Numbered from the stretch's first letter, positions 16,185 through 47,183 are shown. The stretch is DNA of 64,000 bases from Octopus vulgaris (GCA_951406725.2 OX597832.1:60450001-60514000); one strand, 5' to 3'. Notes: generated by a model not told the origin, from the sequence alone. A program made the numbers and translations.

Positions 16185-16507
16185 CTGTGGGTGGTTGTCA
16201 TTTGGAAAGTTTTTGTTTTTTTTCAGAAGACAAGAAGGGTCAACAACAGAGGTGGTGGTGGTGTGGTGGTGTTGGCGGCAGCAGCGGTAGCAGCAGCAGC
16301 AGCAGTAGTAGTAGATGACAGCAGCAGGAGCAGCAGTGGTAGCAGCAGCAGCCGATAGCAGCAGCGGCAGCAGGAGTGGTTATAAAAGTGCAGACGAAGC
16401 ACAGGTGACATGCAGAGTAGTGGTACAAGTGCACAGGAGAGGGTCAAGGTATGAAAGAGAGGAATAGCAAAAAAAAAAAGTAAAAAAAAAGAAAAGAAAT
16501 AGTAGAC
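16185..16507 (-). promoter_or_regulatory. about 320-nt AG exclusion zone containing an interrupted CUG tract (more than 20 YGCY)
   Basis: No CT dinucleotide on the plus strand from 16187 to 16507; distal pyrimidine tract 16441-16500; (CUG/CCG)n at 16274-16372; A/C-rich spacer directly before the AG. Confidence 0.75.
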
Positions 16508-17632: not shown

Positions 17633-17767
17633 TGTAAACCAAGAGGCTTAAAGTTTATGCTAGTGTAACAGAATGGCTGTAAACCAAGAGGCTTAAAGTT
17701 TATGCTAGTGTAACAGAATGGCTGTAAACCAAGAGGCTTAAAGTTTATGCTAGTGTAACAGAATGGC
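17633..17767. repeat. three perfect tandem copies of a 45-bp unit
   Basis: tgtaaaccaagaggcttaaagtttatgctagtgtaacagaatggc starts at 17633, 17678 and 17723 with no spacers. Confidence 0.97.
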
Positions 17768-36659: not shown

Positions 36660-36695
36660 AAGTGAAATAAGGTTCATTCAGCTTGGTTGAAGAAT
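36660..36695 (-). CDS. mbnl: mbnl microexon B, 36 nt, phase 1/1: YSSTKLNEPYFT
   Basis: ctcac branch candidates, tract cccctttttctctccttc, caacag acceptor and TT|gtaagt donor; frame-preserving; same size, phase and position as vertebrate MBNL1 exon 7 (36 nt). Confidence 0.85.
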
Positions 36696-37002
36696 CTGTT
36701 GATTAGAAGGAGAGAAAAAGGGGCAAACGTGTAGTGAGTGAGTGAGAAACAACAACTGCACCAACAACAACAACAATGTAATGTTATAAAACAAATAAAC
36801 CAAAACAAAAATAAAAGGAAAAAAAAGAAAATTGTTGCTAGAGCCACAAAGCAAAATGTGGAATCATCATCATCATTCATTTAGTTTTTGCATGATAAGA
36901 AATGTCAACAGCACAAAGCATTTTCAGCAATGCTTTATGTTCTACTATTTACTACCTCCTTTAATAATAATCATAATAATAATAATAATAATATTAATAA
37001 TA

Positions 37003-37545
37003 ATGCTCTGATGCAGTAGCAGGCAGTGGCTCTCATGGCTTCTGATCTTATCTGATTGGAAGTGTTATCATGTACATTGTTTTATCTTGGTATAAAAGAC
37101 AGGCTATTACAGCAAATATTCTGCTCTATACCACAGATTTGCTTGTCAGTTGTTTGACCGTAACCAGTTGACCATGTCCCTTAGTGGCTGACAATATGTG
37201 CATCTCTGATCCCAAGCAGGAGTAGTTGGGGAGCATCATAGCCATGTGTTGAGAGAAATTCTTTGGAGTTTGGATAATTCACCTTTGAAAACATGGGTGT
37301 TTTGTTCAACATCCTTAAACAATCCTTATTCGGGGACTTTTTGAGCAGGATAACTACTCGACCTGAAGAAAATTCTAACTGAGCCCTACCTGCAAGGTCA
37401 TGTGCTGTTTATCTTAACATACGATCACCATGTTGTGCATATGCCTGGTGTACCCTAATCAGACAGGTAGTTATGATGGGTATGTTGGGCTTTGTATATT
37501 TTACCCCAGTGTCACTTAGATGTCATGCACTGCTCCCTCACTCAA
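37003..37545 (-). mobile_element. non-LTR-type interspersed repeat with (TTA)n tail; second copy at 27028-27365
   Basis: Roughly 330 bp of colinear high similarity between 27028-27365 and 37003-37350, both abutting (AAT)n on the plus strand. Confidence 0.75.
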
Positions 37546-37552
37546 TAATGAT

Positions 37553-37759
37553 AGTTTCAAATTTTGGCACAAGGCCAGCAACTTCAGGAGTTAAGTTGAT
37601 TACATCAACCCCAGTACTTCACTGGTACTTAATTTATTGAACCCAAAAGGATGAAAGGCAAAGTCAACCTCGGTGAAATTTGAACTCAGAACGTAGTGAT
37701 AGGCGAAATACAGCCAAGCATTTTGTCCAGGGTCCTATCGATTCTGCCAGCTCGCCACC
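37553..37759 (-). mobile_element. SINE-like repeat, same family as 7096-7310
   Basis: Reverse complement of the family: gtttcaaattttggcacaaggcc ... ttctgccagctcgcc. Confidence 0.75.
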
Positions 37760-40326
37760 AATAATGATGATGATGAATGTAATAATCTTAGATTAGAGTG
37801 CAATGGAAGCAATAACAATTAGAGCAAAGAGTTAAAAGATTTAATCCATGGATTTGCATCCCTGTTGTTTGTATGTGTGTGTGCATTATGGAAACTACTA
37901 ATCCTTCAAAAAGTGAATGGCATCACTACATGCACTTTATTTTCATGATATTACTGTTAGGAAAGGGTTGAAAACTTGGATGAGAAGTGCCCTAGCTAAT
38001 AACCAAGGAATACAGGAAAAAGGGACATGTATACTGGGTGATACACCTGGTCTCTCTAAACAAACATCTTTATGCCCTGCTTATGGACCAAAGCTTGTCT
38101 TACAGAGTATTCTACAATTGTCTTAGATATTTTGCAAACAACTTGTATATGCAAGTGCTACCAGTTGAGAGCTCTGCATACCAGAAGCCAGCAAGTGTAT
38201 GGGGTTACCAGGAGAGAATGCATTCCGTTTCAGGGCCTACCTCTCGATGGTATCAATGCGCATGGCTCCCCTTACTGATATGAGGCCCCACTTGCTAGAT
38301 CAACTGGTTATCAAATAAAGCTTAATATTTTCAAACCATCGCTCATCGTCTCTTTTTAACCAAATCCAGTGGCTAGCTTTTTCCACTGTAGTTTGGATAT
38401 CGGTCATGGTGGTATTTACTTTATAATGAGTTAGGCCTAAGGATAACAACAATTGCCTCACACTGTGTCCAACAAACCCTCTACATCTGACTTTGAATGG
38501 AAAATGCTCTGCTTTCCAGCCTGCATCTTCACATTCCTTGAGGAGGTTTACATAATGGTCAATCTTTTTGTTAGCAAAAGAATTATATAAGATTACGAGA
38601 GTACAGTGAACATGTGTATTTACTATTTATTGTATAAGATGGTGGAAAGTGTGAAACATGTATACGATTGAAAAGTAACCTCTTGAAATGAAAGATAACA
38701 ATTTTCAAACTCCTGAAGTTACTATAATCAACTATGTCATCAATAAACACCAGCGCTCCTATGTTATGTCATCAACAAGATTCAACCCTCCTGTGTGAAA
38801 AGATAATCTTGCAAAGGTCACTGATAAATTTATTATCCAGTTTGAAAGATATCTTTAGCTGTATGAAACCAGATGAGAATGATAAAATGGATTCATTTCA
38901 ATTAAGTCTGGTAGATACAGCAGCCAATTACTATAATGAAATGGAGCAGCTTGAAATAACAAAAGGGCAAACTAACGATGGTATTATATATTATTCAAGA
39001 TTAAAACATTTCATTGCAACTAAATTAAATAGCAGCAAAAATGTATTCAGGGAACAAATAAGAACATAGTCACTGAAGTAACAGCCTGCTGGAGAAACCT
39101 ATTACTGATGAATATCAGGATATTATAAATCAGCTACATTATGAGGCCAATAGAAATGTATCTTGCTAAAGACTTGAGTAACTGATTAAGAGGCAGTTTT
39201 GCTATAGCTCTGCCTTATCCTATAAGACAGGGAAAACCGTTACACATTAAAGTTGGCTGTTTCTGTAGTCCTGGTGAAAGAGTCAGCCAGTGTTATGACT
39301 AGTATTATGGACAATGCTGATATGAATTACTACATCCCTATGGTACTGATGTTTGGAAATCAATTTCCATTTCGGCTAAAATTTGATTTTGGTGAGAATC
39401 AAGAAGATTAAAGAACTAAGATACCTTGGCACAGGTGTGTCGAAAACATTTTGTAAAGGTGTGTAGAAAATGAAATAGTATTATCAGCAGCACCATGCTG
39501 TCAAACACCTCACCAGGTTCTGTAAATAGGCACAATCAATAGTGGCTTACTGTAAGCGCAAGTCAATTGCCTTTAATTTGTAAAAATAATGTATAAAAAG
39601 TTGGTATTAAAATTATGGCCCATATCAAATCAAGAACTTTTAAGGGAATGAAGTTTAAAATAATTAGGAAAATAACTGTAAACACCAATGTAAACAATTA
39701 CTACCTAGACAATGAAGTTTTGTTGACTACAGAATATCTATGCAATGAAAAGGTAGAGTCAGTAAAGAATCAGAATTCAAATTGTATTAATAATGTTTTC
39801 TGCTGTGTCTAATCCATGGTGATACTCATTGCCCTCATCACCATTATTTTTACTGCCTTTCCATGTTGGTATGGGTTAGATAGTTCACTTTCAACAAAAC
39901 ATCTCCCCTACATTTGTTACTATGTCACAGTGAGACACAGCATACTGAGATCATCCTCCACATCTACCTGTATCTTTTCTACTCTTCCTGTTCTGTTGGT
40001 TCCATTTCCTTGCATTGTCCTTCACCCAACAACTATTCTTTACATGCATCTCATGCTCATAGCTTTCCAGCCTTCTGTCTCACACACTGTAGTGGATACT
40101 TTTATTAATGTCCAGTTTTTCTCTCGTCATCCAACTTTGTCCTTCATGCAAGCTGACTGCTTTCAATAACCCCATCTACCACCAAACATTATTAGTTAAG
40201 GCGTGGTGTGTGTGTATGTGCCTGGATCCTTATTTATAGGTACTCCTCCCATCCCTGATAGGTTAGGAAACGTTATGTTCTATTTTAGTTGGGTCTCTAT
40301 GGCTGGATGCCCTTTCTAAAACTAAC

Positions 40327-40392
<66 letters not shown>

Positions 40393-41439
40393 TCTTTAGA
40401 TGGTTTAAGTCATAGAACTTCAGCCATGCTGGTTGATGCATATAATATATAAAATTAATTTAGCCATGCATGTGTTACTTTGTAAAAGCTTTTTTTAAAA
40501 AAATGAAGCATAAATAATGCATTTGAGAATGAGACAGAAAATATAATTACAACATACAAACGAAAAAAAAAGGACACCCTGCTGCCCACAAATGTTTAGG
40601 ATAAAGAATAAAGTGTATTGAGAATAGAACACAGAAATATGTACAAAGGATAGATGGTAGTACAAAGAGAAACAGAGAAAGGAAGAATGAGAAGTTGTAG
40701 AGAGAGAGAACCTAAGGTAAATATGAAAATATAGAGAAATCAGTACTACAATAACAGAGCCAGCACGCAAACCATTATTGGTAGGGAGCTGAGGATGGAG
40801 GTGGGGGATGTGGTTGATAATGATGGGTGTAGGGTGAAGGGGAAGAGAGCAAAAAACAATTTTAACATTGGTTTAGGGGTTAAAAACAATTATTTGGGAA
40901 CAATTACATTTGTTACTATTGTAGTGAGGGATGTTAGTGGTATTGCTTTCGTTGCTGGTGGCATAGTTGTTGTGGTTGTTGTTGTCGTTGCTGTGCAGCC
41001 TCACATGTATCAAGCAATCTTATGACATGCAGTTTAATCAGTTGAATGATGAGGTACAGCTCACAGACCCTGCCTTCCATCAAGCTGAGCACTATACCAC
41101 ATACTTGGCATTGACCATTTCTGTATGCCTACAGATGCTACTGGAGGCCACAATGTCAGGCAAACAGGAACCAGACAAGATGGGAGTCAAAACTATTGAA
41201 AAGGTTGCAAGATGCAACGAAAATTTTAGGACAATAAAATTTGAAAAAAGTGGAAATTTTACCGGTGAGTGTGTTATATAATAAGGCACAAAGCCATGTT
41301 GTGACTTGGAGATAGGAATTTGTAGGCTGATGAGGTCAAGGATTTACCCATCAAACATTTTTGATGGTGTGCTTAGGAGGATCAGGGGTCTGTATGCCAC
41401 TACTTCACTTGGGTTGTTGTTGTTGCTGGACTTTAGAAC

Positions 41440-42150
41440 CGTGATAGTTTTGACCAGCTTCCAAATTATAGGAATTTAACAGTGTAGGCACAAGTTATTG
41501 TAAACATTCACAGTGCAGTGATTCCTTCAAACCACAAGGTATTTCAGGCATATATTTGTCATTTTGTCAGACCCTGAGGCTTTTATGCTTCTAAATTTCA
41601 CAATTGCTTATTGGGCATCTGATAGAAGGAACAAGCTAAAGCCATAGTCTCTGTGAATGGTGCCTATTTTTCCTATTGTGTTTCAGCAGTTTTCATGAAA
41701 TGTCTACTCAGAGCATATACTTGGCGTTGCCATATGGCAATATCATTTGAGGCTATTATTGTGACATGGAATGTGTAGTGACCATTGTTGCTGCTGATAC
41801 TGCAGCTAAGTACATAGGGTTTTACTGTTAGTTTTGTGCTTAATCTTAGATACAAACATTTGCCAGTTTTCGGTTTTCCTATGTCTGTTTTTGTTATTAT
41901 TTCCCTGTTTAGTTTGTTTGATGTTGAGTTTTATTTCAGTTATGTGTAGTTATGGTGTATTGTGTTTCAGGTTGTCTCTGGTTTTTATGAGGTTGGCTAT
42001 TCCTGATATGTAATTGGGGTTGTATGTATTTTTTGTAGCTTTGTGGGATACAGATTCTTTTTCTTTTTTTTTTTATATAGAAGTGTCTATAATTATTATG
42101 TTGAATGCAATGTACTGTGGTGTTGGTGTTGTGATTGTGCTGTTACTGAA
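41440..42150 (-). mobile_element. possible decayed Penelope-like remnant
   Basis: Stop-riddled fragments such as NLCLH (compare CNLCL.EK); weak. Confidence 0.35.
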
Positions 42151-42509
42151 TTCTGAAAAGATTGATTCTCTTTCAGGTGACTTGACCTGTAAGAAATTGC
42201 AGCCAAATCTTCCAGAAACACTACCCTACTGTCTTCAAATTGGTTAACTATACAGGATAAACTAATACTTGAATATAATAATAGACCAGAACAGAATGAG
42301 ATGGTTATGGTTAGAGAAAGCCAATTGAATGATGAGTACTTGATATGCAGAAATATTTATCATCAATGACGATGATGTTGAAGATGATGCTGCTGCTGCT
42401 GATGACGATGACAATGATGATAATGAATGCAAGCGGTATGTGTGTGAATGTATGTGAGAGGAGTGATGTTAACGCAATGATGGTGGTGCATGAATGATGT
42501 TGTGTAAGT

Positions 42510-42570
<61 letters not shown>

Positions 42571-45500
42571 TGCATATATATGAATATGTTATAATTTGCA
42601 TACATGCAAGTGTGTACATATATGTGTGTAACTGTGTATATGATTGTATTATCATTGTTAGCAATGTATATTCACATAATGTCCATAAGTAACTCTGCTC
42701 CTCTATTAAAGTGTGTGTATATATATATATATGTATGTATGTATGCCACTGTCTACATACACAAACATGTGTTATGCACATATGTGTTTGTGAGTATACA
42801 TTATAAATCTATATCACTGTCTGTATGCATAATCACATGCACAAACACACACAAATGTGTGTTTGCACAAACGTATTACGAATGTATAAATGACTAAATT
42901 TATAACTGTGTGTATGTGTACAAATAGATGTTTATATGAATGGATAGACGTGTGTGTGTATGTGTATGCAAGTACACAATACAACAAGAATGTTACTGGA
43001 GAGTGAGGGAAGGAGGTGGTGGTGGTGGTGAAGATGCGAGATACACAGAAAGAGCCTGTGACCGATGCCAATAAATAACTCGGTCATTGATGCAGTCAGC
43101 AGGAAATTGCAAAATTTATGGTTCAAATTCATCACCGATATACAATTTAGTTACAGAAATAAGTCACAATTACCTGGGGTTTGCTCTTTTGGCTGTATTG
43201 TTGTGTTTTTTTGTTTTTAATTGTGATCATAATTTTTTTTAATATATATATTTTCATCTTCTCTCCATCATTGTGATTATTATACCCTGTTCTCTCTTCC
43301 TTGACTACATCACCCCCACCACCTGTCTGTTACACTTCCCCACATTATTCTCTTTATTATTATTATTATTATTATTAATTATTATTATTGATATTGTTGA
43401 AATAGTTAGAGATGTATTTTGCCTCACCTCACTCGATATTATGAATTAAAGAATTTATTTTTTATTAATTGAAATTATGTGGAAAAATATTTTATTTTTC
43501 AATGTGGAACTTCTTCACAGAGAGGTAAATATTGAATTGTTTGTTGAATTTTCCCTACACTCTGTTCAGAGGAAAAACAAAATGATTTTAATTTGTAAAA
43601 AGGAAATTTCTTTTTCCACTCACTAACAAAGAACTGCACCATGTAAACACATTCCCTGCACCAAAAAATAAGAAAAGGAAATCACTGATGACAGAAATGA
43701 GAAAAACAAAATTAAGACTTTCATCATCCTCATCACCACCACCACCACCACCACCATCCACACTAACGTAGAAGAAACAATGTGGTTGCTCAATATACTA
43801 GAAACAGCAGCCAAATGCACTTCAAGTAACATCATGAGGGAAAATGAAGAGGGCACATAAGAATGTAGAAGCTCTAAAAAGACAAGTTGGATATGAAGGG
43901 GATTCCTTTGGTTATAAGTTTTCTTGACTAGGGCTGACCTGGTGCTAAAATGATAACTATGCTTCTTATCATATCTAAAACAGTTCTTAATTTTTGACTT
44001 AACATCATAAACAACTTTGATGTTATCATCACCATCACAATCAGTAAAACTGGATTTCTGTCGTACTTAGTGTTACATCATGATCATTGTTCATATTGAT
44101 GCTAACTACCACCATCATTTATAATCATTAAGTCAACAGAGGAACCTTTATGTGGTTGCTCAGGTTGCTAGAAATACCAGCCAAATTCCTTAACTGACAC
44201 TACTATTTCAAGTGAAGAACACATTGGATGATGTGGTCTTGGGTTCCATGCTCATAGGAAAAAGACAGGGTTGTCATGGCTGGAATGCCTTTTATTACAG
44301 GTCTGCTCAATCAGGTCAGACCAAGGGAGTAACACATGATATAAGCACAGCTATCCGATGAAGGATTTTCTATGCAGTTCTTCAGCTTGTGAAAAACAAC
44401 GGTGGAAATATCCTTTAAAGCAAACCCTACCACTTTTGAACAGGAAAGAATGCTATGGAGAATGTGGTCCTTTACATGCAGGTATGATTGGTTCAATCCT
44501 ACAGTGTGGCACCTTGGGCAAGTGCCTTTTACTATCAAAGCCTTGTGAGTGGACTTAGTAGATGGAAACTTAAAGAAGCCCATCATATGTGTGTGTGTGT
44601 GTGTGTGTGTGTGTATTTGGCAACCAGTCTTGGTGTGTTTATGTCCCTATAACTTGGCAGTTCAACAAAAAAAGTACCAGGCTTGAAAAGCACTGAGGTC
44701 ACTTCAGTCAACTAAATTCCTTCAAGGCAGTGCCTCAGCATGACCGGAGCACGTAAAAAGACAGAAGACTATGTATATAAACCAATCGCATGTCATTACT
44801 GGAATGTCTTTGATCATGAGTCTGCTCAATCATGAGTGACCTGGGGCTACACACCACTAATAGCAACAACATAATCTTCAAAATCTAATTAAGTAAGAAG
44901 CTGCTGTGTAATCACTTGGTCTACTCTCCATATTGGTTCTCAGTTTAAAATAGTAATTCATGGTTCCACTATAGGAGATAAGATGTCATAGGATAGAATC
45001 TGACTGAGAATTCAAGCAGTTCAAAGACATTAAGTCTACAATAAATATTTTTGATTCAGTTCTGTGTAATGTATATAGATCACGTGTGTGCCATGAGTTT
45101 TGGGAATTGAAGGATACTGGAAAATAAAAGGATGATTTTAAAACCTCATGGGTTTTTTTTTTAATATATCACACTAGCACATATGTTCCTTTGTGGCAAA
45201 GTGCAGCATCCATTTCTGTTTTATAAAATTTTAATACTGCTTTTTGTTTTTTTTTTGTTGTTTTTCATTTACTATAACTTTCAAAAAGCTGATGGTGTGC
45301 CATGACACTGTGTCTTTATACAGTGGATAAAAAAAGATTAATACTACCACCACCACCACCACTACTACTACTTTTTGTAGATAAGACAGGTAAATAGTAA
45401 ACTATGAGAAGAGGCTACAAACACACCCACACATTTGGATGAACAGAAAGAAAAAGTACTCAATATATGAAGGAAAGTTTCTTTAGTTGTTGAAGCTCAT

Positions 45501-45834
45501 GATACACTGTTACAACTAAGAGTTTCTCATTAGATGCAATTCTTCAGGTAAAAAAACAATAGACAGACACACTAACAAGCAGGGATAAGAAGGTAGTTTT
45601 TAAATGGTTGAATGATCTGCTAAAAATAATAGCAAAATCTCCTTTAAATCATGTACTTTTGTGGCAGGAGGGGTGAAAAAACAACATATATAATGCAAGT
45701 GAGTAAAACTGTATCTGGAAGAAAAAAATATATGGGATGACCATGGATAGAATGTCTTTGTTTATAGGTTTCCTCAATAAGATTGTCATAGATCTAAAAA
45801 AACAGCAACAAAAATGTATTAAAAAGTAACTTAC

Positions 45835-45876
45835 AAGTAAAATACGGTTGAATTTCATTCAGCTTTGTGGATGAAT
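45835..45876 (-). CDS. mbnl: mbnl microexon A, 42 nt, phase 1/1: YSSTKLNEIQPYFT
   Basis: Branch-like attaac, pyrimidine tract, aatccag acceptor and TT|gtaagt donor; frame-preserving; paralogous to 36660-36695. Confidence 0.85.
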
Positions 45877-45961: not shown

Positions 45962-46535
45962 CACTTTAGCATTCACATTACTCTGACGAATGTAAGGCAT
46001 ATTTTATTTGTCAATTTCTATCTTTTACATATCTCAGTCATTCAACTGTGGCCATATTGCGGCTCTGCTTTGAAGAATTTTAGTCAAACGAATTGATTCC
46101 AGCACTTACTTTTTTTTTAAAACCTGGTACTTATTCTATTTGTCCTTTTTGCTGAACTGCAAAGTTATGGGGATGTAAAGACTGCAACACCAGCTGTCAA
46201 ACAGTGGTAGGGGACAAAGGCAGACAAAGATACACACACACGACAGACTTTTTACAGTCTCTGTCTATCAGATCCACTCATAAGGCTTTGGTTGGCCTGG
46301 GGCTATAATGGAAGACATTTGCCCAAAGTGCTACACAGTGGGACTGAATCTGGAACAATGCAGTTGCCAAGCAAACTTCTTACCACACATGCATGCCAGC
46401 ATCGCATTGCTCTGAGATGCTCATGTTAATTTTTAAAATGACATTATGGGAAAGGTGTGAAAGGTTGGATCTGACCAGACTGAAGATAAAATAGAATATT
46501 TGGACCAGATATGGCTGTTTAAATGCTAAAAGGAT
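45962..46535 (+). mobile_element. MITE family 1 copy interrupted by a SINE-like insertion (about 46015-46400)
   Basis: Left end ctttagcattcacattactctg and right end gtttaaatgctaaaagg flank a repeat shared with 34675-34840 and 1995-2140. Confidence 0.65.
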
Positions 46536-46915
46536 AAACCCTTCAATTGCAACCTTCCTGAAGCCACCGTAATTTCATATGAGAAACTTTTCTTATATTC
46601 AATGCATTAATTTCTTTATTATCACTATCATTTTTGTACTGACTTAAATTTACACACAATGCACATTATTTCACAGAACGAAAGGCATTTTGTAAAAAAA
46701 AAAAAATTTTTATAAGTCACACCAACAGATATATAATATATATATATACTCTAACAGAGAAGTAATTAAATTTTAATGCATATAATTATTACTCATTAGA
46801 TGTAAATATTATTAAATATTAGTTGATCTGAACAATGAGTTATGGCCTTGCTGGAGCACTGTCCCACATTAATGGGTCTTCTTTTGCAATGAATATCTGA
46901 TCCTTTAATGTTTAA

Positions 46916-47135
46916 CCCTTTAGTGTTCGCATTATTCTGCCAAAATTAATCCTTTGTCATCCACATTGTTTTGAACTAATCATGCATTATCTTGTAGCTA
47001 TGAGATTTTGATGAGGTAGCTGTAATTTTTAAAACGATATTGTAGGGTTGGTGTGAGAGACCAGATCTGGCCAGTTTGAACATAAAACAGGCAGAATACT
47101 TTTGGTCGGATATGGCCAGTTTAAATGCTAAAGGG
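46916..47135 (+). mobile_element. piggyBac-like MITE family 1, intact ends
   Basis: TTAA TSD on both sides and TIR ccctttag / ctaaaggg; related copies at 33041-33245, 45962-46535 and 8288-8505. Confidence 0.85.
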
Positions 47136-47183
47136 TTAAACATGTAAATGTTCATGGGCAATGTCTTGGTGAAAGTTGCTGCA

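Follow-up and report, generated by a model that had tools for sequence, protein, structure and literature searches.

The minus strand of the window analysed here, a stretch of 64,000 nucleotides (nt) from Octopus vulgaris (GCA_951406725.2, OX597832.1:60450001-60514000), carries coding exons of the muscleblind gene. Between these exons, on the same strand, lie two microexons, A and B, on which this paper will focus. The exon upstream of the pair (47786-47645, minus strand) was found to retrieve the muscleblind proteins of Octopus vulgaris, O. sinensis, O. bimaculoides and Argonauta with 98-100% identity, so that this exon and the octopod proteins agree with muscleblind as the host gene named in a first-pass annotation of the sequence. 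Comparison of the muscleblind protein to the genome gave seven matches, all on the minus strand of contig C19 at 60.48-60.63 Mb. Since all other protein matches are located further upstream on this contig, in the same orientation, the mapping indicates one single muscleblind gene of more than 180 kb.

Microexon A (45876-45835, minus strand) consists of 42 nt and codes for 14 residues (234-247 of protein P0001), and microexon B (36695-36660, minus strand) consists of 36 nt and codes for 12 residues (248-259). Both sequences quoted in the first-pass annotation were matched exactly on the minus strand, while the plus strand of the window contains neither. Each microexon is bounded by a pyrimidine tract ending in CAG and by a GTAAGT donor. 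The intron between exon 6 (47786-47645) and A comprises 1768 nt and the one between A and B 9139 nt, with a start-to-start distance of 9181 nt, which confirms the coordinates and the spacing of about 9.1 kb given for these duplicates before. The assignment of both exons to phase 1/1 was also confirmed, and it was further shown that exon 6 ends in phase 1 and that the three possible next exons start in phase 1.

The splicing of A and B was read from the assembled contigs of eight runs, which are presumed to be RNA and whose tissues are unlabelled. A joint was called only with at least 31 letters on each side, and the evidence refers to the joints listed, with 31 further joints outside that list. 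The joints 47645-45876 and 45835-36695, both GT-AG, were identified in the runs X4, X13 and X14, which represent three studies and three organism labels. On their short side, the joints are supported by 42 and 36 letters, and the depth of the two is equal. For X6, a 102-nt contig reads exon 6-A-B, but its 30 letters on each side fall short of the threshold by one. X1 has cover across the introns and no listed joint at A or B, and is evidence neither way; X7, X15 and X19 have no contig on A and are uninformative. The joints are those of spliced RNA, and A and B are genuine spliced exons: with joints in three of the eight runs, the possibility that neither segment enters muscleblind transcripts does not apply. 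Since A is joined straight to B in these three runs, mutual exclusion of the two exons, which had been considered before, is ruled out as the main mode. No joint skipping A or B was identified among the joints listed; contigs drop rare variants, and rare tissue-specific skipping may therefore occur.

At the protein level, the peptide was identified in 26 of the 104 muscleblind proteins retrieved. Every one of these carries both copies and none a single copy, and the 26 are exactly the proteins with a cephalopod-type exon 6. Fifteen are named octopod models, 14 with 14 + 12 residues and one from Argonauta which is cut off inside B; the other 11 are Logan/JGI proteins with two identical copies of 14 residues. 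The two exons were suspected to be missing from annotations; however, both are already present in the NCBI models of four octopods, namely O. vulgaris, O. sinensis (X1-X12), O. bimaculoides and Argonauta. The O. sinensis isoforms vary at other exons, and A+B is kept in 12 of 12. No candidate for a single-copy form was identified among the shorter proteins of 30-162 residues, and none of the 78 other muscleblind proteins contains the peptide. A choice between none, A, B and A+B had been proposed, but A+B is the only form seen, both in the 26 proteins and at the A-B joint. A pattern scan of metagenome contigs for DNA copies from the sister lineage gave no match, and a protein scan gave five muscleblind loci of other animals, three of them readable at this position and none with the peptide. 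The pair appears to be cephalopod-specific within the sampled proteins. No publication on octopus or cephalopod muscleblind exons was found in a search of titles and abstract openings, with subscription papers and supplements outside its range; apparently, the pair is in gene models already, yet not discussed in print.

A and B represent an ancient, co-included tandem exon duplication, as they are homologous neighbouring exons of equal phase with a similarity above chance. When the 6-nt gap is removed, 5 of 36 sites differ, all of them silent third positions (TCA/TCT, TCC/TCA, ACA/ACC, CCG/CCT and TTT/TTC), so that the recomputed comparison reproduces the five silent substitutions and the 6-nt indel described before. 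Four of the six fourfold sites differ and none of the 25 non-synonymous sites, and the Jukes-Cantor (JC) estimate of the silent divergence (dS) is about 1.3. The gap in B has three adjacent placements, with five differences under each, and a 12-nt core is identical between the copies. Five randomly placed changes were all silent in 0.03% of 2,000,000 trials. In neutral simulations, among the runs with at least five silent changes, 3 of 1053 at a d of 0.3 and 18 of 230 at a d of 0.15 matched A/B in having no replacement. With five silent changes against zero replacements and silent sites near saturation, the comparison supports the earlier suggestion of an old duplication kept under protein-level selection.

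For the age of the duplication, trees were built without the microexon residues. The Logan/JGI rows were placed outside Octopus and Argonauta (99/95; 92/88 in a second tree, with a borderline p-AU of 0.049) and grouped with Octopus and Argonauta against other molluscs (94/99 and 93/98), and the 11 proteins most likely belong to squid and cuttlefish. As both copies of this sister lineage have 14 residues, the duplication would predate the split of octopods and the sister lineage, and the two-residue gap would be a later loss in octopus B. The split has been dated to about 277 million years (PMC13736915), a value which applies if the sister rows are squid and cuttlefish. In the 26 proteins, both copies have remained free of replacements over this period, compared to 2-3 replacements and two indels in the 47 residues of exon 6.

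The similarity between A and B covers 72 nt, comprising the exon and its splice signals, with 76% identity, and ends at the splice signals. Outside this region, blastn matched the two flanks only in dispersed repeats or T-rich runs, which are non-collinear, in line with the earlier statement that the flanking introns are unrelated; the comparison of the 300-nt flanks to other intron segments gave 15/500 (upstream) and 68/500 (downstream). High-depth dispersed repeats surround the pair at 36881-38023, 41072-41452, 44501-44881, 46025-46405 and 46787-47167, and those near A and near B are not collinear between the two flanks. On the whole minus strand of the window, A and B are the only in-frame segments of 12-51 nt which combine a pyrimidine tract of 75% with a GTAAGT donor, and no further copy was found in the window within six mismatches of the 23-nt core. 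In the 2.8-Gb genome, a tight pattern matched twice, once at A and once at B, by which a dispersed repeat, named before as the finding that would speak against the pair, is ruled out. A fully degenerate pattern gave five matches genome-wide, three of which are devoid of the second half of the peptide or of the donor, and one match for the control. One chance match of the degenerate pattern, L003 (G000:C2:40790469-40790493, minus strand), follows a long pyrimidine tract and AG in an open frame and is likely an exon of an unrelated gene.

When the proteins are mapped back, the exons follow in the order KR exon, exon 6, A, B, terminal exon, 113-nt exon, two-frame exon and last finger exon, all on the minus strand. 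Exon 6 (142 nt) is the equivalent of the vertebrate exon 6 and contains the second KR motif. The first KR motif is located on an alternative 69-nt exon (54639-54571), the equivalent of the vertebrate exon 5 (PMC10773944), which is present in some proteins and not in others. An alternative terminal coding exon (31730-31600) is joined after B in 12 of the 26 proteins, with Cys as the junction codon. In 13 of the 26, B is followed by an 85-nt exon (4630-4546), which then codes for a short tail and a stop; entered in phase 0, the same exon codes for zinc finger 5. A 113-nt frame-shifting exon (16184-16072) is predicted, which leads from phase 1 to phase 0 and resembles a scallop exon, and is absent from all 26 cephalopod-type proteins retrieved. 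The predicted last coding exon (1289-1153, its end read from the translation) contains zinc finger 6 and is 62% identical to scallop. Together, the frame-shifting, two-frame and last exons would give a third zinc-finger pair. Such a pair is present in the scallop proteins and is found in Drosophila mbl-O/P (PMC9352392); none of the 26 cephalopod-type proteins represents this isoform. A 45-nt unit is repeated in three perfect copies, head to tail, at 17633-17767 in the intron which precedes the frame-shifting exon. Two open frames (38626-38303 and 63583-63221, minus strand), which gave no Pfam family above the cut-off, resemble pieces of decayed non-LTR retroelements.

The splice sites of A and B are strong, as in constitutive exons, with 81% and 86% pyrimidines upstream and GTAAGT donors. 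No TGC was found within 20 nt of either acceptor and no GCATG within 300 nt of the exons. The AG exclusion zones of the pair comprise 46 and 58 nt, which compares to 30-32 nt at the dual-frame exon and exon 6 and to 186-297 nt at exons 5 and 8. YGCY motifs occur five times upstream of each of A and B, which is the 90th percentile of the window. A separate observation concerns the KR exon and the frame-shifting exon, which are preceded by AG-free zones of 186 and 297 nt and by clusters of 12 (54640-54889) and 22 (16185-16434) YGCY on the minus strand, compared to an average of 2.2 per 250 nt in the window. Judging from these marks, the two exons are likely autoregulated. Microexons of the eMIC class comprise 3-27 nt, and A and B are longer. 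Most marks of the weak-site microexons of the eMIC/SRRM4 type (PMC8797185) are missing at A and B, which have strong donors, pyrimidine-rich tracts and no near UGC.

In the predicted model of P0001, which was derived from a 16-sequence alignment, the zinc fingers alone are folded, and residues 108-267 have a pLDDT below 50, with values of 30-41 in the tail. Both copies of the repeat match the core R/K/H-X2-5-PY in the form K-X2-5-PY, with a spacing of 5 in A and 3 in B, so that the two-residue deletion in B keeps the spacing inside the X2-5 rule. P0001 contains six PY dipeptides, of which only the two of the repeats are preceded by a basic residue at a distance of 2-5 positions. At least two PY core sites were identified in 25 of the 26 proteins, the partial Argonauta model having one, and 69 of the 78 other muscleblind proteins are devoid of a K/R/H-X2-5-PY site. 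A search of the ESM Atlas with the tail returned muscleblind clusters only (best 0.80) and gave no lead.

The slot between exon 6 and the next exon was readable in 77 of the 78 other proteins: 37 have no sequence between exon 6 and the next exon, and an unrelated insert is present in 40, most of them isoforms of three scallops. Judged from these 40 proteins, the slot is a recurrent site for new in-frame exons. None of nine inserts from molluscs and from annelid-like and arthropod-like proteins resembles A (shuffle p 0.37-0.85). The insert of scallops was identified as an exon 6 duplicate, as none of 2000 shuffles reached its score, and is optional (P0044 versus P0048); a slot insert is likewise optional in P0065 versus P0100. 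In the scallops P0015-P0025 and P0042-P0062, this partial duplicate of exon 6 arose independently and is preceded by an optional piece of four residues. The octopus peptide could not be traced to the 3' end of exon 6, where the match comprises three residues only (shuffle p 0.12). The position of A and B, between the second KR exon and the frame-shifting exon, is that of the vertebrate exon 7, as had been noted before. Vertebrate exon 7 has 36 nt and is included at about 60-80% in myoblasts (PMC6530876), and dimerization requires its cysteine (PMC13227107). A and B together contain no cysteine, so that the shared position does not carry the function of exon 7 over, and the link to self-association drawn in the first-pass annotation is not supported. 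The Cys in the first codon of the terminal exon, across the junction with B, is also present in the sister-lineage protein P0038; as a speculation by analogy, it could offer a disulfide like the one of vertebrate exon 7.

Taken as a whole, one small exon is present in two copies, A and B, which are spliced in together and bring the same peptide twice in succession into a predicted disordered tail, where it probably acts as a doubled docking motif, with a stronger binding of a partner as the result. The single exon would have originated on the cephalopod lineage, at a phase-1 slot which receives lineage-specific inserts in many animals, and would have been duplicated before the octopod and sister lineages split, after which octopus B would have lost two residues. 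Selection would keep both copies for the same job and not for two jobs. A peptide which is kept unchanged, is doubled, is always seen in both copies and lies in a disordered tail is best read as a short linear motif, and its doubling would raise the avidity for the partner. The leading candidate for this partner is the import receptor Transportin, on account of the K-X2-5-PY in each copy and the deletion in B within the permitted spacing; aromatic self-association would be the second. Several points weigh against this explanation. The docking or import role is putative, and the PY signal would fit in its core only (PMC7930572). By chance alone, a PY is often preceded by a basic residue at one of the four positions before it. 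The repeats are neutral, with one K and one E each, and by inspection show no hydrophobic or basic N-terminal motif; the tail has a net charge of +3 over 84 residues. With a 16-sequence alignment, the low pLDDT is weak proof of disorder. Regulated skipping may be hidden by the loss of rare variants, the incomplete listing of joints and the unlabelled tissues. The date depends on the presumed species identity of the Logan/JGI proteins, with Nautilus outside the sample, and the octopod gene models are partly dependent on one another. A more far-reaching proposal, that coleoids gained a doubled Transportin-type import signal in their sole muscleblind, which was frozen for about 277 million years and, independently of the autoregulated KR exon, rewired the sharing between nucleus and cytoplasm in neurons, is quite unlikely.

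It also appears rather unlikely that A and B are regulated cassette exons which set the motif dose to 0, 1 or 2 by tissue or stage, with A+B as merely the commonest form. Both exons keep the frame, inserts of this slot are optional in the proteins named above and in vertebrates, and the YGCY content upstream is raised; however, none of the 26 proteins and no joint listed skips either exon, the splice sites are strong with no UGC near the acceptor, and five YGCY are far below the 12 and 22 of the likely autoregulated exons, with GCATG missing as well. The same slot and the similar size would make the pair a cephalopod stand-in for MBNL1 exon 7 which drives self-association, and the repeat, being 23% aromatic, could provide sticky contacts, but this is improbable for a pair without the cysteine required in vertebrates and with a peptide unlike the nine slot inserts, the slot being shared and not the sequence. 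The doubling might instead be functionless, one copy being useful and the second a passenger kept alike by gene conversion or exonic splicing signals. Short exons need enhancer sequences, the 12-nt core is identical, and octopus B, having lost two residues, tolerates change; this is nevertheless very improbable, because the differences at four of six fourfold sites argue against both recent conversion and nucleotide-level constraint, and the two copies are free of replacements where exon 6 is not. Tandem duplicated exons are often spliced as mutually exclusive homologous exons (PMC9741552), but for A and B this is extremely improbable, as the A-B joint and the presence of both in all 26 proteins already speak against it as the main mode, which is thereby refuted, and neither the 9.1-kb intron nor the equal phase would prevent their joint use by steric hindrance or by a change of frame.

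As a doubled docking motif, the pair would be a clear example of tandem exon duplication retained to double a motif and not for alternative isoforms, in a splicing regulator which is important in neurons, in muscle and in myotonic dystrophy. The unchanged peptide would mark an interaction site specific to cephalopods, within a tail that is regarded as poorly conserved. The pair provides a target of 26 residues. The pair alone opens no new mechanism, and its exons are already in public gene models.

Compared to known systems, A and B resemble MBNL1/MBNL2 exon 7 as short in-frame exons in an unstructured C-terminal tail, after the KR exons 5-6 and before a frame-shifting exon (PMC6530876, PMC13227107). 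In contrast to exon 7, the octopus pair is devoid of cysteine, consists of two copies and showed no skipping in the proteins and joints listed, and its peptide was found only in cephalopod-type proteins, in a comparison set containing no vertebrate protein. With the lineage-specific inserts of scallop, abalone, Gigantopelta, Littorina, Patella and annelid- or arthropod-like proteins, the pair shares the extra in-frame peptide after exon 6, whereas these inserts are unrelated in sequence, present as single copies and optional at least in scallop. The neural microexons depending on SRRM3/4-eMIC are likewise very short, frame-preserving and embedded in long introns (PMC8797185), but A and B differ by a strong donor and pyrimidine tract, by the absence of UGC near the acceptor and by no sign of a switch-like inclusion. 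Like the PY signals recognised by Transportin-1 (PMC7930572), the octopus repeats contain the R/K/H-X2-5-PY core and belong to an RNA-binding protein, in which they lie in a region predicted to be disordered; unlike these, the repeats are neutral, with K in place of a basic patch and without the N-terminal motif. Like the tandem duplicated exon substitution events, A and B derive from an ancient tandem exon duplication with conserved homologous peptides (PMC9741552); unlike these, both are included together and lengthen a repeat, and their peptides have stayed the same and have not diverged.

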